From: Spirochaetes bacterium ADurb.Bin218
GTDB taxonomy: Bacteria > Spirochaetota > UBA4802 > UBA5550
Reading direction: 5' to 3'
DNA: 64,000 nucleotides
NCBI GenBank assembly: GCA_002069965.1
Contig: MWCI01000007.1
Span: forward strand, 873 to 64,872
Numbering within the stretch: the first letter of the stretch is position 1; each line of letters begins with the position of its first letter. This document shows positions 5,135 to 58,438 of the stretch, in pieces. The notes beneath the pieces were generated by a model. It did no database searches and was not told the DNA's origin. It worked only from the letters and a program-made list of their open reading frames with translations. The position numbers and the translations under genes are program-made.

Positions 5135-6865
5135 GTGCCACATAGCAATAAATCCTACGGATGGACAGGCAAAATACTTCTCATAGATCTATGCACTCAA
5201 AAATATGAAGTAATAAGGCCTGAGGAAAATATATATAAAAGCTTCTTAGGTGGAAGAGGACTTTGCTCTTACTATATGAGAGAAATAAAAAATCTTATGC
5301 CCAGTGAAATTCCACTTCTATTCTTCCCAGGAGCTTTAACAGGAACAAAAATTCCCTTTGCAGTAAAAACAATTATATCGTCAATATCTCCACTTACAAA
5401 GACTTTCTTTACATCTGCAGTTGGAGGCTTCTTTGGATGGCACCTAAAAAAAGCTGGATGGGATGGGATTATTATAACAGGAAAATCGCAAAATCAAATT
5501 GGGCTGACGGTAAAAGATGAAAATGTATCCTTTTTTGACTGCAATGATTTAAAAAATAAAAAGGCCTCTGATATATTCCATAAGCTTAAACCAGAGGGTA
5601 GCGCAGCAATTACCTCCATTGCTGCTGATAATGGAGTGGCTTTTTCAAATATAATTATAGACAAATATTTTTTTGCAGGCAGAGGAGGCCTTGGCCTTGT
5701 TATGGCGAACAAGGGGCTTAAGGCAATAGAGGTTTATGGCAGTTGCGATATTGCAGTTCATGACAGCGAAAATCTAAGCAAAGGCATAGAGGATTCCATG
5801 CGACTTGTCTCTGCATCCCCTTCTCTTATGGGTGAGTTGGGCTTTACAGAGTTTGGGACCTCTGCCCTATATGATCTCATTTTTTCACGAAATATCATGC
5901 CTGCAAAAAATTTTGCAAGCAGAAGTTTTCCTGATGCAGAACATCTCAACGCCTGGAATTTTAAAAATAAATATCCATGGGAAAAGACAGGTTGCCCAAA
6001 CTGCCCTATCTTATGTAAAAGAATAAGCTCCGAGGGATTACTCCCTGAATACAACTCAATGGCACATTTCTCATCTCTTATTGATAACAGGGATATTGAT
6101 ATTGTTATGGAGGCAAACAGACTCTGCAATGAAACAGGAATGGATACAATCTCTGCAGCCTCTGCAATTGCCTGTTACAGGGAACTAAAAGACAAAGACC
6201 ATAGCATCGATATTATTCAACTGCTTAAAGAAATTGCCTTTGCCTCAGGGGAAGGAAAACTGTTGATTAAAGGCTCAAGTGAATTTTCAAAAAAATTATC
6301 TTCTCCAGAATCATCAATGAATGTCAAAGGCCTTGACTTACCAGCCTTTGATCCCCGTGGTGCCTACGGCTTTAGCCTTGCCTATGCAACATCAACAAGG
6401 GGTGGCTGTTATCTTCAGGCATATCCCCTTTCTCACGAGATATTGCGCAAGCCCATTGCAACTGACAGATTTTCCTTTGAGGGTAAAGCAAGGATTACCA
6501 AACTAAACGAAGATATGAATGCAGCAATGGACTCCCTTGGGCTGTGTAGATTTTCTGTAAATGCCTTTGGACTTGAGGAGTGTGCAAAGCTTTTGAATGC
6601 TGTTACAGGAGAAGACTTTACTGCTGGGGATCTCATGAATTGTGGTGAAAGGATTTTTTATAATGAAAGAATTATAAACTATACTCTGGGATTTGATTCA
6701 AAGGATGATGATTTGCCAGAGAGATTTTTTGAATCAGAAAATGCTATCAACAGAGATGACTTCCTTAAAGCAAGAGCCAATTACTATCTAATAAGAGGAC
6801 TTTCACCAGAGGGAAAGCCTTTAGAAACAAAAACCAGGGAGCTTAAATTAAAATGGCTGGAGTAA
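5135..6865 (+). CDS. Aldehyde:ferredoxin oxidoreductase family (tungsten/molybdenum pterin enzyme)
   Basis: The N-terminus GWTGKILLIDL matches the family. GCPNCPILC gives Cx2Cx3C ligands for the 4Fe-4S cluster, and DSLGLCRF is the family motif with the fourth Cys. The start is GTG, preceded by AGAGAGGAAAA. Confidence 0.85.
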   Translation: MPHSNKSYGWTGKILLIDLCTQKYEVIRPEENIYKSFLGGRGLCSYYMREIKNLMPSEIPLLFFPGALTGTKIPFAVKTIISSISPLTKTFFTSAVGGFFGWHLKKAGWDGIIITGKSQNQIGLTVKDENVSFFDCNDLKNKKASDIFHKLKPEGSAAITSIAADNGVAFSNIIIDKYFFAGRGGLGLVMANKGLKAIEVYGSCDIAVHDSENLSKGIEDSMRLVSASPSLMGELGFTEFGTSALYDLIFSRNIMPAKNFASRSFPDAEHLNAWNFKNKYPWEKTGCPNCPILCKRISSEGLLPEYNSMAHFSSLIDNRDIDIVMEANRLCNETGMDTISAASAIACYRELKDKDHSIDIIQLLKEIAFASGEGKLLIKGSSEFSKKLSSPESSMNVKGLDLPAFDPRGAYGFSLAYATSTRGGCYLQAYPLSHEILRKPIATDRFSFEGKARITKLNEDMNAAMDSLGLCRFSVNAFGLEECAKLLNAVTGEDFTAGDLMNCGERIFYNERIINYTLGFDSKDDDLPERFFESENAINRDDFLKARANYYLIRGLSPEGKPLETKTRELKLKWLE

Positions 6866-36758: not shown

Positions 36759-36817
36759 GTAGTTGATTTTTTCTCCCTATCTTCTAAAAAATTTCTTATA
36801 AATAAGTGAGGTTTGGT

Positions 36818-38695
36818 ATGAATACATATCTTAAAGTGCTAATTGTCGATGCTAATACTGGATTTTACAGACTATCAAGGTTCAAGGTTGGAGATTACTT
36901 TGGTCCAGTGGATCTTGGTCTTCATCTCTCAAGGCGTTATGGAAGCCTCAATATAGGCACAGGACTTCTTGCTGGTTCAATATTTCCAGGGACAAACCGA
37001 TTGATATTCTCTGGTTTTTCCCCATGCTGGAGTGGATTTTATATTTCAACAATGGGAGGCGCAGGACTTGTCTTCAACAACTTAGGTATTGACATGCTTG
37101 CCATTGCAAATAAATCAACAATGCCTTCCATACTCTATCTCAACAGAAGCCACGGAGAAGAAATTCAGGTTGCCATTCACCCTGTTGATCTCAACCAGGT
37201 TTGGTTTTCTGGAAGAGGAGGTATTTATTCACTGACTGATTATGTCCATGAAAGATTTGCAGATTCATACGATAATGATCCACGAATTCTTGTCACAGGT
37301 CCTGCTGCAGCAGCTACCGCCTTTGGTGCTATTGCCTCAATGCCAATTAAAAAGAAAGAGATTACCTATGTGGATACATGGGCAGGGCGAGGCGGTTTTG
37401 GTTCCAAAATGCTTCAGGAACATGGAATTGCTGCAGTAATATATGGAGGAACATTCATTGATGATGACTTTAGAGATAGAAAGGTTGCAGATCAATGGTT
37501 TGTTGACAAATACAATAAAAAACTTGCTGCAAAGGATCTTGAGGCAACAGCCAAATATAGGTTTGACCCTAATTTTGATACAGGGGGAACCTTTGGAGTA
37601 AACTATGCAACTCTTGGCGGCAGGATGATTTCTTTTAACTATAGAAGCATTTACTGGAGTGAAGAGAAGAGGCTTGAGATTCACGAAAAGTTTATTCGCA
37701 ACCATTATTTAAAACAGTTCAATGAAGAGACGATTAAGCCACAAAAGCAAACTACCTGTGGCGAGCCATGCGTTGCTGTGTGCAAAAAAATGAGAGACAT
37801 TTACAAAAAAGACTACGAGCCATATCAGACCATGGGACCTCTTTCTGGAATATTTGATCAAAGAGCAGCAGAAAAACTCAACCATCATGCAGACATGTAT
37901 GGCTTTGATGCCATATCTGCCGGAGGTCTGGTTGCATGGCTGATGGACTGTCTTTCAGATGGACTAATATCCCATGAGGATCTTGGTATCTCTGACAAAA
38001 AGCCAAATTTTGATCCAGACAACTTTGATGTAGTTGCTGACTCTATGAGAAATGCAGACATAGGCTGTGAAATACTTGATTCCATTATCTATAAAAGGGG
38101 AACTCTCAACCTGCAGTCAGGAGCAAGAAAACTTGCAAGAAAGCTCGCTGGAGCAAAAAGCAAAGAGATATTGGATCGCCTTGTATGCGTTGGTTTTGCA
38201 CGCAACGGATGGATGGTGCCAAACCAATACTGGACACCAGGGGTTCTCTCGCCAATGGCAATAATGGGTAAATACTTTATGTATTATGGAGAGGATTTTC
38301 TGCCACCAAGGGAGCTCGGCAGGCAGGATGCGGATCGATTCAAAAAAGAGCTTATACTGGATAACATGGGAACCTGCAGATTTCACAGAAAATGGGCGGA
38401 GGAAATTCTTCCAGAGGTAATGGGCTCCCTCTTTGGATTAGAAAAAGAGTACCTTCAGAAGATATCCAGAGCTGCAACAAGGATCAACAGTAGAAACTCC
38501 TCAATATTCTGGGAGAGCGAAAGAAATATAGATTTTATCTATACCTTCCTTAAGCGCAAGAGAGATGTTGATGGAGTAAAAAATCCAGAGCTTGATAAAT
38601 GGATAGCAGAATTTGAAAAGGATAAAAAAGAAGCTGCCCTTGAATTCTGGTATGAAATACACAAGGGAATTCAGGAGAGCCTAAGGGATTATTGA
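36818..38695 (+). CDS. Divergent aldehyde:ferredoxin oxidoreductase-family protein
   Basis: The N-terminus is AOR-like. The cluster motif CGEPCVAVC has Cx3Cx3C spacing, and NMGTCRF carries the fourth Cys. I moved the start to ATG 36818 after GTGAGG. Confidence 0.7.
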   Translation: MNTYLKVLIVDANTGFYRLSRFKVGDYFGPVDLGLHLSRRYGSLNIGTGLLAGSIFPGTNRLIFSGFSPCWSGFYISTMGGAGLVFNNLGIDMLAIANKSTMPSILYLNRSHGEEIQVAIHPVDLNQVWFSGRGGIYSLTDYVHERFADSYDNDPRILVTGPAAAATAFGAIASMPIKKKEITYVDTWAGRGGFGSKMLQEHGIAAVIYGGTFIDDDFRDRKVADQWFVDKYNKKLAAKDLEATAKYRFDPNFDTGGTFGVNYATLGGRMISFNYRSIYWSEEKRLEIHEKFIRNHYLKQFNEETIKPQKQTTCGEPCVAVCKKMRDIYKKDYEPYQTMGPLSGIFDQRAAEKLNHHADMYGFDAISAGGLVAWLMDCLSDGLISHEDLGISDKKPNFDPDNFDVVADSMRNADIGCEILDSIIYKRGTLNLQSGARKLARKLAGAKSKEILDRLVCVGFARNGWMVPNQYWTPGVLSPMAIMGKYFMYYGEDFLPPRELGRQDADRFKKELILDNMGTCRFHRKWAEEILPEVMGSLFGLEKEYLQKISRAATRINSRNSSIFWESERNIDFIYTFLKRKRDVDGVKNPELDKWIAEFEKDKKEAALEFWYEIHKGIQESLRDY

Positions 38696-40558: not shown

Positions 40559-40705
40559 GACAGCGGCTCTTAAAAAAGTTAAAGCTGCTGTCTCATCTCT
40601 CGTATTATTAAGCAATAATACGCTGGAATTAGCACCTGCCCTTATTAAAGGGTGGTTGCCGCAGTTTCCCAGGGCCAGTCCCTCCACTGCTCTTGATAAG
40701 ACATT
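40559..40705 (-). promoter_or_regulatory. SAM-I (S-box) riboswitch with expression-platform hairpin, leader of metX-metW
   Basis: The minus strand reads TCTTATCAAGAGCAGTGGAGGGACTGGCCCTGGGAAACTGCGGCAACC...GGTGCTAATTCCAGCG...AGAGATGAGA (P1 is TCTTATC/GATGAGA). GACAGCAGC...GCCGCTGTC plus TTATT follows. Confidence 0.9.
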
Positions 40706-52074: not shown

Positions 52075-52722
52075 ATGCGCAATATATTTTTGGCAATTAT
52101 GCTATTGTTTGTTTCTGTGATTTCGTACAGTCAAAACAATAGCACCACAGTGGACAATAACCAGAATCAGAATAATCCAAAACAGGAAGTTCCAAAGGAA
52201 AATACAGATAAATCCTCCATACCAGAGGGATATGGCAACATTTCCTGGGGCATTCTTCTTTCAGATGCCAAGGACAAAATTGCTGGCAGGCTCACCTATA
52301 CTGATGAAAAAACAGTAATTATATCAAAAGAAAGCGAGATTCAATATTACTACGGTTTCTTTTATAAAGAGCCAGAGGAAAATGAAGCAGCAGAAAATAC
52401 AGAGGCAGTGCAACAAAAAGACGAAGGAAAGCTTTTTTATGTATTGATATCATTTCCCTACATTGACAAGGATCTGATATATGAAAAGATAAAAGAAAAA
52501 TATGGCATTCACACAGGGGAAACCCTGAAGGACAATCAGGGAGCAATAGTGTGGGATTCAGAAAAAACTGTAATTATCATGTGGGTTGAGAGATACAACA
52601 AAAAACCCTATTGCAGAAAAATCACATATCTAAGCAAAGAAATTGCAAAAGAGCTGAATGAGTACACAAAGAATATGTTTATCAAAAAAGAACTGGATGT
52701 TTTAAAAAATCTAAAGCCATAA
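52075..52722 (+). CDS. Secreted protein of unknown function
   Basis: The signal peptide is LLFVSVISYS/QNN. It is followed by a low-complexity N/Q/E linker and then a globular part. Confidence 0.5.
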   Translation: MRNIFLAIMLLFVSVISYSQNNSTTVDNNQNQNNPKQEVPKENTDKSSIPEGYGNISWGILLSDAKDKIAGRLTYTDEKTVIISKESEIQYYYGFFYKEPEENEAAENTEAVQQKDEGKLFYVLISFPYIDKDLIYEKIKEKYGIHTGETLKDNQGAIVWDSEKTVIIMWVERYNKKPYCRKITYLSKEIAKELNEYTKNMFIKKELDVLKNLKP

Positions 52723-52752
52723 AAAAAGGGGGCAAAATCGCTCCCTTTTTTT
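52721..52752. terminator. Bidirectional terminator between convergent genes
   Basis: A7-GGGGGC-AAAATC-GCTCCC-T8. Confidence 0.7.
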
Positions 52753-52758
52753 ATTATA

Positions 52759-55512
52759 TTATTGATGAGTTATAAATATAGGAATTAATCCTATTCCATC
52801 ATCTAAATAATCAAGAGCCTTCCCTATTACAGAACCAATCTTATCGAAGGAATCAATAACTCCTTTCATAGCACATCCTGGCGTATCTGAAGCAACAAGG
52901 AGATCCCCTGGCTTTATGGGATTTTGTCTTGCATCAACTCTACAAAGACCCTTGCCTGCAAGAATTACAGGATAAACTTTTTCTTCTTTCCCTGAGTTAT
53001 TAATTACAACAAGAGGATTGCCAGAAACAACACCTATAACTGCTGTAGTGTAACTCTTTGAGGATCTGGAAAGTATGGACTTACCCTTGTCACTTGCAAC
53101 AAGCAGATCTCCAGTAGCAATAAACTCTGCCTCATCAGCCTCAAAAAACTCAACTATATTCCCTGGATATTCTAAGTTTAAAGAAGAAAAAGAAACATTC
53201 CCATGGAATTCACAGGAACCCTTTGCAAAAAGCGCCTTTCCCTCTCCCTTAAGTTCTATAGAAGAATCAAAAGACTTAAGCTCATTTCCATAGCCATCAG
53301 CAATAAGCGCAAAGTCATGCTCGCTGCCAAAAAGGCCTCCTGCACCAAACCTTGATATTCCAAGAACACCTGCACCTCTTTGAAAATCTCCACTGGACTG
53401 ACCTCTAACTCCAACATGAGAGCTATGTCCAACTATACCATAGGTAAGAATATAATCCTTAGATAAAACCCCTGCAATCCCTGTAATACCAACTGAATGA
53501 GACTTATCTGAAATATTATTTGCATATATTATAGATGAATCATGAGAAGGTGCTGTAATATCCTTGAAAATCTCTTCCTTTTTATCTTTTATAACTATAG
53601 TTCCAGAGTGACTGCTGAAATCATGGTTAATCGGTGCATAATCATGACTATGAGGCAAAGGTTCTCTTTTATCACTTAACCTCTCATCATCCCCCTGAAC
53701 TACTTTCCCGTGGGCTTTTTCTCCATTTTTTGCAAGGCGAACAATTCCTGAAGTTTCCTCTGTTGCATCCTTTAAGCGCCTGTCATTTCCCTGAACTACT
53801 ACTCCTTCTCTATCCTCTCCATCCTCCGCAAGCTCCACTATCCCCTTGCTCAAGGTAGTTGCATCCTTTAAGCGCCTGTCATTTCCCTGAACCACTACTC
53901 CTTCTCTGTCCTCTCCATCCTCCGCAAGCTCCACTATTCCCTTGCTCAAGGTCGTTGCATCCTTTAAGCGCCTGTCATTTCCCTGAACCACTACTCCTTC
54001 TCTATCCTCTCCATCCTCCGCAAGCTCCACTATTCCCTTGGATGATATTGTGGCATCTTTAAGCCTTCGATCTGTGGAAAGAACAACTGCTCCTTCAGTA
54101 ACAGCACCATCAGCAGCAAGAAGAACTATTCCCTTTGAATAAACACTTGCATCTTTAAGACGCCTGTCATTGCCCTGAACCACTGTTCCCTGATCTGTTC
54201 CGCCATCTGGCGCCAACTTTGTTATTCCATAGCTTTCAGTGGTAGCCTTCTGAAGCCTTGAGTCATTTCCAGAGACAACTGCATGCTCCTTATATTCTCC
54301 ATCAGGACAAAGCCTCACTATTCCAAAATTAGTCTCTGTGGCATTTTGCAACCTTGAATCATTGGATTGAACAACAGCATTGGGATTTGTTTCTCTGTTA
54401 TAGGCAAGCCTGACAATACCAGGCCTTTGCTCTGTGGCATTTTGCAACCTTGAATCATTGGACTGAACAGCCAGACCTTCTGTAGATTCACCGTCATTTG
54501 CAAATTGGACTATCCCTTTAAAAACAGTTGAGGCCTCCCGTAACCTGCTGTCTGTGGATTGGACAACCTTCCCTGGAGCAACCTCTCCATCCATTGCAAG
54601 CCTAACAATACCAGCATGAAAAACAGAGGCATGGGGAGTAATATCTCCTGCTGTATGAGTATGATAAAAATTAACAGGAGCAGCTGAGATCTCCATGTTT
54701 TTAATTTTTATTCCCTTTTTACCCTGTCTTAAACTTTTACTATAGGCCTCAAGCTTTACAAATCTTGCAGATCTAATTCCAGTGACCCAGCTATAGCTTT
54801 TATTCATCTCTGACTCAAAATTAGTCTCATGAACCAGTGTGAGCCATATCTCATTGTCCACAGATGTCTCTATGGTAAACTTCTCTGGAAATCCATCAGT
54901 GGCAGATGTAAGAACTATTCTGTTAATGGATACAGTTTTACCAAGATCAACAAGGACATATTCAGTATCTCTATCATTTGAGGATTTCACCTCCCAGCAT
55001 TTATCCCCACTTAAAAATAAATTATCTGGCGAGCATCCCTCTTCCCAACCACTGGCCTTGACCTCACTATAACCGGAGATGCCAATTTCAACTCTGCCTA
55101 TCTCTGCAAAGTAAGAGCTACCAGAGACAGCAGGCTCAAGAATGAGCACCTTAAGATAACGCATAAGTGTAAGGGGAATGTCAATATCATAGCTGTTTGC
55201 TGAAAGAGAAGTATCCCTCTCTGAATAGAGAACACTCCAGGCAGATGTATCATTGCTGTATTCAAGCCTGAATGATATTGGGAAGGTTCCTGGTCCCTTT
55301 GGTGAAGTGCTGAGCCTGATATAATCAACTGGAAGTTCCTCTCCAAGATCAATAATTACATATTCATGAATCGCTGCACTGCGTTTTTTTGTGCTCCAAA
55401 ATCCACTTTCTTTAAGTAAATTTTCTGGAGAGTTTATATCACTCTCACAGCTGGAAAAGCTATGTATTTTTCCTGTATAGTATTTTCTCTGACATATATT
55501 TATAAATTCCAT
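52759..55512 (-). CDS. Large repeat protein: two F5/8 type C (discoidin)-like domains, ten 32-aa tail-fibre-like repeats, Gly/His-rich C-terminal domain
   Basis: Residues ~1-280 show two discoidin-like units (..YVIIDLGEELPVDYIRL.. and ..YVLVDLGKTVSINRIVL..). Residues 295-614 are ten A(T/S)xxxxGIVxLAxDGExxxGxVVQxNDxRLxD repeats. The C-terminus has duplicated GDLLVASD motifs. There is no signal peptide. Confidence 0.8.
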   Translation of the reverse strand: MEFINICQRKYYTGKIHSFSSCESDINSPENLLKESGFWSTKKRSAAIHEYVIIDLGEELPVDYIRLSTSPKGPGTFPISFRLEYSNDTSAWSVLYSERDTSLSANSYDIDIPLTLMRYLKVLILEPAVSGSSYFAEIGRVEIGISGYSEVKASGWEEGCSPDNLFLSGDKCWEVKSSNDRDTEYVLVDLGKTVSINRIVLTSATDGFPEKFTIETSVDNEIWLTLVHETNFESEMNKSYSWVTGIRSARFVKLEAYSKSLRQGKKGIKIKNMEISAAPVNFYHTHTAGDITPHASVFHAGIVRLAMDGEVAPGKVVQSTDSRLREASTVFKGIVQFANDGESTEGLAVQSNDSRLQNATEQRPGIVRLAYNRETNPNAVVQSNDSRLQNATETNFGIVRLCPDGEYKEHAVVSGNDSRLQKATTESYGITKLAPDGGTDQGTVVQGNDRRLKDASVYSKGIVLLAADGAVTEGAVVLSTDRRLKDATISSKGIVELAEDGEDREGVVVQGNDRRLKDATTLSKGIVELAEDGEDREGVVVQGNDRRLKDATTLSKGIVELAEDGEDREGVVVQGNDRRLKDATEETSGIVRLAKNGEKAHGKVVQGDDERLSDKREPLPHSHDYAPINHDFSSHSGTIVIKDKKEEIFKDITAPSHDSSIIYANNISDKSHSVGITGIAGVLSKDYILTYGIVGHSSHVGVRGQSSGDFQRGAGVLGISRFGAGGLFGSEHDFALIADGYGNELKSFDSSIELKGEGKALFAKGSCEFHGNVSFSSLNLEYPGNIVEFFEADEAEFIATGDLLVASDKGKSILSRSSKSYTTAVIGVVSGNPLVVINNSGKEEKVYPVILAGKGLCRVDARQNPIKPGDLLVASDTPGCAMKGVIDSFDKIGSVIGKALDYLDDGIGLIPIFITHQ
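53671..54630 (-). repeat. Coding tandem repeat array, 10 x 96 bp (32 aa)
   Basis: The period of 96 bp is read directly from the translation of residues 295-614. Confidence 0.9.
53767..54054 (-). repeat. Three near-identical 96-bp copies (repeats 7-9)
   Basis: The units starting at 53765, 53861 and 53957 differ at about 4 positions per 96. Repeats 8 and 9 encode identical peptides. Confidence 0.9.
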
Positions 55513-55571: not shown

Positions 55572-55967
55572 TCAATTATAAAAAGAACGTATAAAGCTTA
55601 TGATTAAAATAACGCACAGCAAAAGCCTTATAACTGCATCAAACCTTATAACTCCCTTAAGCCCACCAGAGGAAAAAGTAATCTCTGCATCACTAAAAGC
55701 GGATCTTATCTTTTCAGGATATATTAAAAGCAGAGGCCCTGTTAAAGCAATAATAAGACCAATATAAAAAATAATTCTACTCATATAGCCTTTATAGATG
55801 CTCAAAACAATTCCGATAAAAATAAGAACAATCCCATGGGAAGGAAAAAATTTACTAAAAACCCATCTCTTCCATAATTCAAAAGATTTAAGAGGGAAAA
55901 AAAACTCCATGAAAAAAATCAATCCCTGAATTAAAGCAAAGGACACAACAATATAGTCAATCATCAA
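55572..55967 (-). CDS. Small integral membrane protein
   Basis: Four hydrophobic helices. It overlaps the upstream hydrolase gene by 11 nt. Confidence 0.55.
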   Translation of the reverse strand: MMIDYIVVSFALIQGLIFFMEFFFPLKSFELWKRWVFSKFFPSHGIVLIFIGIVLSIYKGYMSRIIFYIGLIIALTGPLLLIYPEKIRSAFSDAEITFSSGGLKGVIRFDAVIRLLLCVILIISFIRSFYN

Positions 55968-56709
55968 ATCTCCTCAACCATTCCCTTATGTGATTCATTA
56001 TAAAAGCTATATCCTCCTGCCGTGTAAGGTTGTGATCACCATCATCAATTACATAGCTTGCAACCTCCCCTGCAAGATTATTAAGAAGTATACTGTGATT
56101 TACAAAAGGTACAACAGAGTCAAGCTTTCCATGGAACAAAATTGCAGGCTTTGATATTGACCTTGCAGCCTTAACTAAATCAACGCTTTTTAGCTCTTTA
56201 AAAAATTTATTATTTATTTCAATTCCAGAAAGCTTACTGGATCCTTCAGGATCCAGTTTGTCCACATCATCAGGAGTCATTTCAGGTATAATCTCCAGAA
56301 GATTAACTGGAGTGGCTATGAGAATAAGGCTTTCAAAGTCATCAAACTCTGAGGCAACATAAAGGGATACAGCAGCGCCCATACTTGATCCCATGAGATG
56401 AAGCCTTTTTATCCCATGTTTTTTGAATTCATCAATTGCCGCCCTAAGATCAGCAACCTCCTGCATAAAGGATATCTCTTTTATATTGCTCTGAGACTCC
56501 CCTGCATAAGAAAAATCAAAGGTCATAAGATGATAACCACAGGAAACAATATCCTCTGTCATTCCAGTAATCTTATAGCCATCCTTTGTTGAAAAAAGGC
56601 CATGACTAAAAATCACACCTTTGTCTGATGGAATTTCAGGGGAGCAGATCCTTGAACTTAAAGGAATCCCCTTTTTATTCAAAAATGAAAAATCTTTTCT
56701 TTTCATCAC
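55957..56709 (-). CDS. Alpha/beta hydrolase
   Basis: IFSHGLFS and the nucleophile elbow HLMGSSMGAAV are present, with later Asp (GKLDSVVP) and His (DGDHNL). Confidence 0.8.
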   Translation of the reverse strand: MMKRKDFSFLNKKGIPLSSRICSPEIPSDKGVIFSHGLFSTKDGYKITGMTEDIVSCGYHLMTFDFSYAGESQSNIKEISFMQEVADLRAAIDEFKKHGIKRLHLMGSSMGAAVSLYVASEFDDFESLILIATPVNLLEIIPEMTPDDVDKLDPEGSSKLSGIEINNKFFKELKSVDLVKAARSISKPAILFHGKLDSVVPFVNHSILLNNLAGEVASYVIDDGDHNLTRQEDIAFIMNHIREWLRRFDD

Positions 56710-57176
56710 TTTCCCTTTTTCTCAAGTTTTATCAGTGGTTCAAAATATCCCTCAGAGGTATTGCCATCAATATATATTTGAAGAGGAATCAGTTCCATAT
56801 AGCTTTTGTTATGTTCTTTAATTACCTTGCAATTAAACAAAAAGTAAGAGGATTTTGCCTTTTTATAAGCACCATGAGTGTTTAGATTTTTGACCTTTTC
56901 CTCTCTTTTCATCTCAGATATATTTATCCTGAGAATTCCCTTATCCTCAAAGGTATATATGCCTCTAAAAATCACAGAGGCACTATTTAGATATAAGATA
57001 ACCTGAGCCTTATAGTTCTTACCAAAGGTAAAGGAATAGCCGTAATCATTTTCATAGTGCAAGTCCCAGTTTCCAGAAACATTCGTAAAATCTCCAGGCT
57101 GAGACTCTTGAGCAAAGGAAAAGCAATTAAGTAAAAAGACAAATATAAAAATTTCCAAAAAAGTAAGCTTTTTCAT
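56706..57176 (-). CDS. Secreted or lipoprotein of unknown function
   Basis: The signal peptide is FIFVFLLNCFSFA/QE. Its stop overlaps the hydrolase start by 4 nt. Confidence 0.55.
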   Translation of the reverse strand: MKKLTFLEIFIFVFLLNCFSFAQESQPGDFTNVSGNWDLHYENDYGYSFTFGKNYKAQVILYLNSASVIFRGIYTFEDKGILRINISEMKREEKVKNLNTHGAYKKAKSSYFLFNCKVIKEHNKSYMELIPLQIYIDGNTSEGYFEPLIKLEKKGK

Positions 57177-57256
57177 AAAAAATTTCCTGTAACAAAAGGT
57201 ATATTATCTGTCTTATATAATGTTAGTATAATTTTATGTGTCAAATATTTAATTTA

Positions 57257-57295: not shown

Positions 57296-57644
57296 GGGGA
57301 CGATCTGGTTTCGACTGCAACAGTAGTTCTGTAGTTGCATGCCGAGTGCGCTGTCATCTCGTAAATAATGGCAGATTAAACATAAGTGCAAACGAAAACT
57401 ACGCTTTAGCAGCATAAAACCTGCTATGTCTTTCTGCATATTGCTCCTCTGGGTAGCAGAAAGGCATGAGCTACAGAGGATAGCCTGATACTTTGCCCCT
57501 AAGTTGAAGGCGAAAATCTAAAGGGATCGGCTTTTGAAACAGTGCCACATTCTGGTTCAAAGGCTTAAATGAAAAAGTGTGGATAAGCATGTAGACGCTG
57601 CAGGAGTATTTTGCAGGACGCGGGTTCGACTCCCGCCGTCTCCA
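57296..57644 (+). ncRNA. ssrA: tmRNA (SsrA)
   Basis: The 5' end GGGGACGATCTGGTTTCGAC pairs with the 3' end CGTCTCCA, and the T-arm is GCGGGTTCGACTCCCGC. The tag reading frame GCA AAC GAA AAC TAC GCT TTA GCA GCA TAA at 57388-57417 encodes ANENYALAA. Confidence 0.95.
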
Positions 57645-57649
57645 CAGAA

Positions 57650-58438
57650 CTATTTTATGAGAGCAAGAATCTTCCTTCCATATTCAGAAAGCATCACCTT
57701 AGAAATAGTGAGGGAGCTTTCATAATCAACAATACCAAAATTGTTCATCCAGTTAATGAGATAAAACTCAACAAAGGAAATTGCAAAGGCATCATCTCTC
57801 TCTGCAATCTCTGTCATTTCAAAAAAATCACGGATAAAATCCCCAATATCTACAGGAATAAAAAACTCACCAAGAAAGTCTATAAAGATAGAACGTGTAG
57901 AAAAAAGCCTCTCTGCCAGTTCAGGGGATGATGGAAAGATATTTTTCCATTCAGTTTCATTCCAGAAGGATTTTAATATTTTTATAAAAAGCTCTTCTCT
58001 TGAAAGAGAACAGGATATTGTAGCTATTCTTTTATTATTCTGAACAATTCCTGCACTTCTGAGTATGTGCATCATCTGCTTTAGATAAATAACCACAAGC
58101 TCTTCATCATTTTCATGAAAAAGATGAAGAATCTCCCTTGCAAGAGAAATATAAAAGTCCTCAGTAAAGGAATTATCTGCCTTTATCTTAATGTTACCAG
58201 AGGTAATCTTTTCTATTATTGCCTGAGCGAGAATAAGGGCATAACAATTCTTTATTTTCATCTCATTGTTTTCTATATAGCCATCCTGTAGGGACATATA
58301 AAATTTTGTTACAGTGGAATAGCTTGATAATATATCTAAATTACTCCCCTGTGGCTCTATTAACAAAAATTTTCGGAAAAAAAATAAATCCTCTTGTTTT
58401 TTATTTACTATAACTTTATCTAACTTTCGTGATCTCAT
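57650..58438 (-). CDS. Hypothetical protein, no recognisable motif
   Basis: A 262-aa ORF with coding-like composition. Its TAG stop lies 5 nt from the tmRNA 3' end. Confidence 0.55.
   Translation of the reverse strand: MRSRKLDKVIVNKKQEDLFFFRKFLLIEPQGSNLDILSSYSTVTKFYMSLQDGYIENNEMKIKNCYALILAQAIIEKITSGNIKIKADNSFTEDFYISLAREILHLFHENDEELVVIYLKQMMHILRSAGIVQNNKRIATISCSLSREELFIKILKSFWNETEWKNIFPSSPELAERLFSTRSIFIDFLGEFFIPVDIGDFIRDFFEMTEIAERDDAFAISFVEFYLINWMNNFGIVDYESSLTISKVMLSEYGRKILALIK

Follow-up and report, generated by a model that had tools for sequence, protein, structure and literature searches.

How did a gene composed of parts of phage tail fibres come to lie among the metabolic and housekeeping genes of a spirochaete, and does its product still serve a phage or does it now serve the host? 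The question is raised by a 917-residue protein encoded in a 64,000-nucleotide stretch of contig MWCI01000007.1 of Spirochaetes bacterium ADurb.Bin218 (positions 873 to 64,872; the whole stretch is referred to here as the window). An earlier note, made from the DNA letters alone, had described the gene as an orphan joining discoidin units to tail-fibre-like repeats, with neither a signal peptide nor phage neighbours. Of several possible explanations, we favour one that we consider probable, namely that the gene encodes a phage-derived, domesticated glycan-binding fibre, most likely a homotrimer, which is encoded by the host and now belongs to it. The proposal of the earlier note that this is a new class of fibre or adhesin was overstated, because every module has a known phage counterpart.

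Discoidin heads and a T4-type repeat shaft

The product consists of two discoidin domains, ten 32-residue repeats and a Gly/His-rich C-terminus; the coordinates of all parts are collected in Table 1. Its homologues were analysed in three sets, comprising 118 proteins for the repeats and the HTH motif, 120 for the N-termini and the cleavage motif discussed below, and 31 diverse proteins for alignment A1. In Pfam, NCBIfam and PADLOC we found no entry that covers the family or its C-terminal module, and nothing on this fibre family in spirochaetes was found in the literature.

The two N-terminal discoidin units read from the letters are borne out by the Pfam model F5_F8_type_C, which matches in two stretches with 78.2 bits against a gathering cut-off of 28.2 and so places both domains in this family. 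CBM32 modules are found as weak sequence matches of the region in the PDB. Both domains share their Pfam family with the CBM32 or F5/8 type C modules of bacterial glycoside hydrolases, but they differ from these in being attached to the end of a fibre-type shaft and in lacking a catalytic domain.

The ten repeats follow each other in exact register, as the earlier note had counted them. The unit recurs 1,779 times in the 118 homologues, with the consensus ATTxSKGIVELAEDGEDKPGVAVQGNDRRLKD, so the array is far beyond what could occur by chance; G7, D27 and R29 are essentially invariant among these units, G7 being present in 99 % of them. A profile of 92 diverse units, when compared with the PDB, matched the T4-type Gp12 short tail fibre (E = 0.0025) and also the Gp34 proximal subunit, with the matches running through the ATxxxxGIVxLA half of the repeat. 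Among the PHROGs, the array matched the "tail collar fiber protein" (PHROG 910, E = 8e-10), and when the complete array was compared with 50,697 phage genomes by tblastn, the only matches were to four T4-like phages, in their "long tail fiber proximal subunit", with 80 % of the array covered. A spirochaete unit, ATTLSKGIVELAEDGEDREGVVVQGNDRRLKD, aligns with its phage counterpart, ATEDRRGVLEIATQAETNAGTDDTTAITPKKLDTRR, in register across consecutive repeats, which places ND-R-R-L opposite TP-K-K-L. The suspected likeness to phage tail fibres, with ND.RL in place of TP..L, is thereby upheld by profile, by tblastn and by alignment.

The spirochaete repeats are thus homologous to a solved trimeric fold, the mixed alpha-beta fibrous repeat of Granell et al. 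(PMC5537660), in which a conserved Gly turns into the strand and an (S/T)-P pair at consensus positions 43–44 caps a helix, giving a three-helix bundle on the fibre axis (PMC5537660). The two types of repeat have in common the tandem units with an A-T-x-x-x-x-G-hydrophobic strand motif (units of T4 gp34 and gp12 begin with A-T-E-x-x-x-G-(I/V)-x-x-(L/I)-A), the conserved turn Gly that starts the strand, and a C-terminal segment that stays in register over several consecutive units. They differ in that the spirochaete unit is strictly 32 residues long, as against 33–47 residues with variable loops, has invariant D27 and R29, and is arranged in ten to sixteen uninterrupted copies. As the (S/T)-P cap is replaced by N/S-D followed by x-R-L, the spirochaete repeat is a variant and not a typical member of the gp34/gp12 group. 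Also unlike T4, there is no virion, and no recognisable gp57-type chaperone gene lies near the spirochaete gene. The repeat end NDRRLK was also considered as a mimic of the SDxRLK cleavage motif of Peptidase_S74, an idea that we rejected since NDRRLK occurs in every shaft repeat, aligns to TPKKL of gp34, and is accompanied by no Pfam S74 match at E ≤ 1.

The length of the shaft varies between closely related strains. Ten proteins with N- and C-terminal regions 99.7–100 % identical to those of the window protein carry 8 to 13 repeats, and in three forms for which the units were listed (with 8, 10 and 13 repeats) the sole difference is the copy number (1–6) of a single unit. The modal number in the family is 16. 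Three homologous loci have the fibre gene as two overlapping open reading frames (ORFs), with the break inside the array (L010, 7621–10915; L044, 8100–10912; L080, 5737–9353), which could be due to assembly errors in the repeats or to real frameshifts.

Motifs of the HxH type flank the array on both sides, as the earlier note had remarked. The HTH before it is found in 116 of 118 homologues, and in the segment PLPHSHDY..NHDFSSHS after it residues H7, H9, Y11, H16 and H21 are invariant throughout alignment A1. In solved trimeric fibres, HxH motifs contributed by three chains form octahedral Fe/Zn sites (PMC6116203).

A distant relative of the phi29 gp12 chaperone at the C-terminus

The C-terminus had been described as a Gly/His-rich region with a duplicated GDLLVASD..G motif. 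This description is correct, as the motif occurs twice, but it left two things unrecognised: a chaperone-type module related to phi29 gp12, and a widespread Gly-rich cassette that precedes it. An AlphaFold2 (AF2) model of residues 615–917 is confident only for the last ~135 residues (predicted local distance difference test, pLDDT, 75–92), and both GDLLVASD hairpins lie inside this module. A Foldseek search matched it to pre-mature phi29 gp12, the form of the tailspike from which the auto-chaperone has yet to be removed (3suc; E = 5.5e-4, probability 1.00), and to trimeric phage cement or decoration proteins (Pam3, BB1, TW1 and lambda gpD). Fold matches in BFVD include "preneck appendage protein barrel", tail-fibre and collagen-repeat phage proteins.

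The relation is also detected by sequence profile. Profile A3, built from 22 unrelated modules and that of the window, matches the phi29 gp12 chaperone 3gqh with E = 4e-4, the match beginning at its first residue (D-F-A-E-Y-F), as well as residues 691–743 of full-length gp12 and the "chaperon domain D4" of a tailspike; 6qz9 (E = 1.7e-3) and 3suc are also among its matches. In contrast, profile A1, built from the family's own C-termini, gave chance-level matches only when compared with PDB sequences, and tblastn of the last 135 residues against 50,697 phage records (INPHARED) gave none, so that the phage relation of the module is visible only with profiles and folds. Matches below threshold were found to Peptidase_G2 in 6 of 23 diverse modules and to Phage_cement_2 in 4 of 23; NCBIfam has no match for the module. 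The module thus shows a sequence and fold relation to the solved gp12 chaperone and occupies the corresponding place, the extreme C-terminus of a fibrous protein. On this combination of profile, sub-threshold Pfam and fold evidence, it is a distant relative of the gp12-type chaperone.

The phi29 chaperone is needed for trimer folding and trimerisation and is then cleaved off (PMC3357383, PMC4690869), and mature gp12* ends at residue 691 (PMC6542822). The similarity to the spirochaete module starts exactly where the released chaperone does, and both have a beta-stranded barrel fold. The cleavage motif is S|D-x-A-E-x-[FY], with an essential Glu. At the corresponding columns, where the spirochaete family reads x-N-I-V-E-x-F, Glu is found in 119 and Phe in all 120 of 120 sequences, so that the Glu is retained, while 112 of 135 other module carriers keep D.AE.[FY]; in the uncleaved 3suc entry, this Glu position is occupied by Gln. 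The spirochaete protein is unlike gp12 in that a Gly-rich segment and gp34-type repeats precede the module in place of a beta-helix depolymerase, and in that the gene is chromosomal and not viral.

Cellular proteins carry modules of this type very often. When the C-terminal profile was searched exhaustively, 18,660 representative clusters (50 % identity) were obtained, 10,162 of them at E ≤ 1e-10. The module forms the very C-terminus in 110 of 119 carriers, the proteins ranging from 130 to 3,100 residues, and 27 of 135 carriers (among proteins P0135–P0269) have two or three copies. Carriers include giant proteins of Woesebacteria and Falkowbacteria as well as many proteins of 250–450 residues, which are mostly without signal peptides, and further carriers, among them those of loci L086 and L087, also lie in cellular contexts. 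The Gly-rich segment of the window protein is a shortened version of the cassette found before this module in thousands of unrelated proteins; in many small proteins, profile matches run from positions ~30–75 to 303. A domain model for the module would improve the annotation of many "hypothetical" proteins, as it falls below the Pfam threshold and has no NCBIfam model.

A chromosomal gene of uncultured Spirochaetota

Homologues of the fibre form at least 388 clusters, and all those with a named source are from metagenome-assembled genomes of Spirochaetota or Leptospirales. A scan of GTDB species representatives found carriers in at least 116 species, all of them uncultured Spirochaetota, with one copy of the gene per source or stretch examined. 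Three more distant proteins of 839–867 residues (P0128, P0131 and P0139) have the same build of discoidin domains, repeats, HxH motifs and module. Thirty large ORFs from across the window have metabolic or housekeeping roles and none is a phage gene, in agreement with the earlier note. Five neighbourhoods of the fibre gene, two of them on contigs of 4.8–4.9 Mb, contain cellular genes only. The supposition that a host encodes this protein of tail-fibre parts is strengthened by its chromosomal position and by IMG/VR, where family-specific patterns found no relative among 2.9 million viral contigs.

These data bear on the possibility that the gene is a decaying prophage remnant, or phage cargo transferred recently, without a function for the host. 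Apart from the phage-type modules themselves, the one observation that could be taken in this sense is the split of the gene in 3 of 85 loci, but the splits lie in the repeat array, where assembly errors are common. Patchy distribution, phage neighbours and relatives in viral contigs, which would mark a remnant, were all absent from the data above: genes of the same architecture are intact in at least 116 species at 50–65 % identity and in conserved synteny, the homologues were never embedded in prophages in the neighbourhoods examined, and the viral contigs as well as the phage records searched with the module gave no relative. The GC content shows no anomaly and is host-like, and invariant residues occur throughout the protein. 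A remnant is already largely refuted by these results, and we regard it as extremely unlikely.

A second possibility, raised in the earlier note for tailocins and contractile injection systems, is that the protein is the receptor-binding fibre of a tailocin, an extracellular contractile injection system or a particle resembling a gene-transfer agent that is encoded elsewhere, and that it is cytoplasmic until released by lysis. Shaft and tail modules are indeed all of the phage-fibre type, and a family-wide lack of signal peptides is what would be expected for particles released by lysis. However, genes for sheath, tube, baseplate, capsid or lysis, which should adjoin such a fibre gene, were found neither in the window nor within 10 kb at four distant homologous loci, and the N-terminus is a pair of lectin domains with no recognisable domain for attachment to a baseplate. 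In R-type pyocin, P2 and T4 gp37 fibres, HxH motifs likewise flank fibrous segments and a lectin-type domain occurs at one end, but there the lectin is C-terminal and distal while the N-terminus binds the baseplate; in the spirochaete protein it is the N-terminus that carries the lectins, and particle genes are absent.

Conservation along the protein points in the same direction. Relative to the window protein, the discoidin pair has a median identity of 41 %, the His/Gly-rich segment one of 56 % and the module, the best-conserved part of the family, one of 66 %. Variation is thus greatest at the lectin end and conservation at the C-terminus. This gradient is the reverse of that seen in phage fibres, and opposite to what a particle-attached fibre would show; it supports the reversed polarity that the earlier note had proposed. 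Overall conservation is also high for a receptor-binding protein, at 57 % compared with 44–46 % for neighbouring genes without a housekeeping role. We consider a particle fibre, for which the analysis gave no positive evidence, quite unlikely.

Cellular location and the partner gene

The absence of a Sec signal, as claimed from the letters, agrees with two observations: the first discoidin domain starts at residue 1 of the maximal ORF, and inspection of 120 homologue N-termini revealed none that resembles a signal peptide. The protein could therefore be envisaged as an intracellular or periplasmic structural element, such as a lectin-tipped strut or a cytoskeletal or envelope component, in which the phage modules serve as a rigid spacer and which is no surface adhesin. 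Besides the family-wide lack of signal peptides, this would fit the strong purifying conservation and the single-copy, syntenic inheritance, which resemble those of a core structural gene, as well as the fact that signal-peptide-like N-termini are found in only 22 of 114 small carriers of the Gly-rich cassette and module. We nevertheless regard it as rather unlikely. Discoidin and CBM32-type domains are typically glycan binders outside the cytoplasm, length polymorphism at the strain level and a variable lectin end are typical of surface-exposed proteins, and the genetically linked partner described next is secreted.

The term "orphan" in the earlier note applies to the fibre gene only in part. 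When the window neighbours were compared by tblastn with 85 loci, 73 of these proved to have a partner gene convergent with and adjacent to it, as did 44 of the 45 loci longer than 15 kb. The 94 homologues of this partner all belong to the same clade as the fibre. It has no match in Pfam or PHROGs, and its AF2 model (pLDDT 79) has only weak fold matches of the DUF4309/SAV1118 kind. The one locus examined for the more distant fibre proteins (L088) has adk, rnc, acpP, fabG, plsX and che genes around the fibre gene, where a search for the partner gene found it absent; the architecture of the fibre therefore extends beyond the clade in which the two genes are linked.

On its other side, the fibre gene probably forms a four-gene operon with three upstream genes. 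Being present in 20–25 of 85 loci, these three are conserved only in a subclade; upstream genes in general recur in 17–25 of the 85 loci, and purM in 16. The PADLOC defence profiles matched neither the fibre, nor the partner, nor five upstream genes.

A model for the fibre

To return to the domesticated fibre that we favour, assembly would begin at the C-terminus, where the beta-barrel module is expected to bring three chains into register. Folding might then proceed from the C- to the N-terminus, through the Gly-rich and then the His-rich segment, and metal would presumably be held in buried sites made by the HxH motifs of all three chains. The shaft would be built of ten gp34/gp12-type alpha-beta repeats, in each of which the invariant Gly starts a strand and ND.RL may cap a short helix, three of these helices being bundled along the axis. 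At the tip, two discoidin domains per chain would give six lectin domains. The discoidin end would be the variable, ligand-binding end and the C-terminus the conserved end for assembly or attachment, while the gain or loss of one repeat unit could tune shaft length within populations. Outside the cytoplasm, such a fibre would serve as an adhesin or anchor by binding glycans, in concert with the secreted partner.

Several points weigh against this interpretation. The trimer remains a proposal, the structure predictions (AF2 of residues 615–917 of the fibre and of the partner protein) being all of monomers, and in the former the first 168 residues (615–783) have a pLDDT below 50. The Foldseek TM-scores of the module are modest (0.26–0.33 on query length), and the best Pfam match of the window module, Peptidase_G2 (PF11962), remains below the gathering score, with 15.6 as against 25 bits (E = 0.011). 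The column that corresponds to the P1' Asp of the phi29 site contains Asn in 63, Gly in 44, Ser in 11 and Asp in only 2 family members; with the Glu conserved but this Asp replaced, it is uncertain whether the spirochaete module is released. The partner is convergent and not co-transcribed with the fibre gene, and its fold provides no clue to function. As the fibre protein carries neither a signal peptide nor a known export tag, its extracellular location is an assumption.

The closest functional analogue are the mosaic adhesive trimer (MAT) fibres of Bdellovibrio bacteriovorus (PMC10769870). These too are host-encoded, phage-like trimeric fibres, many of which have a C-terminal intramolecular chaperone and at least one of which binds glycans (PMC10769870). 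They possess, however, a signal peptide, a conserved N-terminal anchor of ~130 residues, chaperones of the S74 type and variable tips at the C-terminus, and each genome has 21 paralogues, whereas the spirochaete protein lacks a signal peptide, carries lectins at its N-terminus and a module of the G2 type, is conserved at the C-terminus and occurs in one copy per examined stretch. The signal peptide and ~130-residue N-terminal domain that define the MAT superfamily are thus lacking, the N-terminus being a discoidin domain. No assignment to another characterised adhesin family with a known secretion route was obtained either.

If our interpretation is true, the family shows clearly that phage tail-fibre modules have been adopted as a core gene of the host throughout an uncultured clade, with reversed polarity (lectin heads at the N-terminus, a chaperone-type module at the C-terminus) and a shaft length that varies between strains. 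It would also offer a concrete, expressible target for studying how a signal-less fibre leaves the cell, and would allow one to test whether a phi29-type auto-chaperone has been retained as a functional end-piece. A more far-reaching version can be imagined, in which fibre and secreted partner form a vertically inherited envelope appendage that is new to science. The fibre would be assembled in the cytoplasm by a retained, non-cleaving module of the phi29 type that also docks the partner, and would be exported without a Sec signal, and the cassette, with its more than 18,000 clusters, would represent a large and so far overlooked class of signal-less, self-assembling cellular fibres. We think it unlikely that this version is correct.

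Features of the locus and its surroundings

Table 1. Positions in the window of the fibre gene, its parts and other features of the region
Feature	Residues	Position	Strand	Basis or remark
Discoidin-headed fibre-type protein, whole gene	1–917	52759..55512	-	917 aa, ATG start
Two tandem F5/8 type C (discoidin, CBM32-like) domains	1–294	54631..55512	-	Pfam PF00754, E 7.5e-22, two stretches
H284-T-H286, HxH motif directly before the repeat array	284–286	54655..54663	-	in 116/118 homologues
Ten 32-aa repeats, compact variant of the T4 gp34/gp12 "mixed alpha-beta fibrous" repeat	295–614	53671..54630	-	register, profile, PHROG, tblastn
Three near-identical 96-nt repeat copies, copy-number-variable unit		53762..54040	-	TRF, 96-nt period, 97 % identity
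His-rich segment KREPLPHSHDYAPINHDFSSHSG	615–637	53602..53670	-	H621, H623, Y625, H630, H635 invariant
Gly-rich G[VI]xGxS-type segment (YGIVGHSSHVGVRGQSSG..GAGVLGISRFGAGGLFGSEH)	638–783	53164..53601	-	profile matches; AF2 pLDDT below 50
Beta-barrel module, distant relative of phi29 gp12 auto-chaperone and phage cement proteins	784–917	52762..53163	-	AF2, Foldseek, profiles
N785-I-V-E788-F-F790, at the position of the phi29 cleavage motif D692-F-A-E695-Y-F	785–790	53143..53160	-	alignments
Partner gene, 215 aa		52075..52722	+	Sec-type signal peptide, no lipobox Cys, low-complexity linker, conserved ~150-aa domain
Perfect 15-bp hairpin flanked by A and T runs, read as bidirectional terminator of both convergent genes		52719..52754	.	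sequence
Three upstream genes, overlapping or closely spaced: 156-aa lipoprotein-like, 250-aa alpha/beta hydrolase, 131-aa multi-spanning membrane protein		55572..57176	-	ORFs, Pfam
Best promoter-like site		57244..57217	-	
tmRNA gene, full length		57296..57647	+	201 bits
Protein of 213 aa		58767..59408	-	no family match
ORF of 104 aa		59456..59770	-	PilZ-like by eye only
ORF of 313 aa		45730..46671	-	five matching PHROGs, function unknown; best E 7e-20
SAM (S-adenosylmethionine) riboswitch		40590..40702	-	93.6 bits
Alpha/beta-hydrolase-fold gene, 387 aa		39373..40536	-	
Aldehyde:ferredoxin oxidoreductase		5135..6865	+	
Aldehyde:ferredoxin oxidoreductase		36806..38695	+	

A search of Rfam did not find a regulatory RNA adjoining the fibre gene. 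The tmRNA gene falls within the conserved block on the upstream side of the fibre operon, and gaps of ~480–530 nt at the same place in two homologous loci (L001 and L003) suggest that it is part of the conserved synteny. The ORF at 57611..57931 (+) overlaps it and is probably spurious. Further upstream, the gene of the 213-residue protein is kept in 17 homologous loci and is adjoined by the 104-residue ORF.

The 313-residue ORF in the table represents the only phage-family signal in the region besides the fibre gene and a phosphoglucomutase. Elsewhere in the window, the SAM riboswitch is located directly upstream of the 387-residue hydrolase-fold gene, a position that would be expected for an acyltransferase of the methionine pathway. 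An anaerobic lifestyle of the source organism would fit the presence of the two aldehyde:ferredoxin oxidoreductase genes, a B12-binding radical-SAM gene and RtcB.

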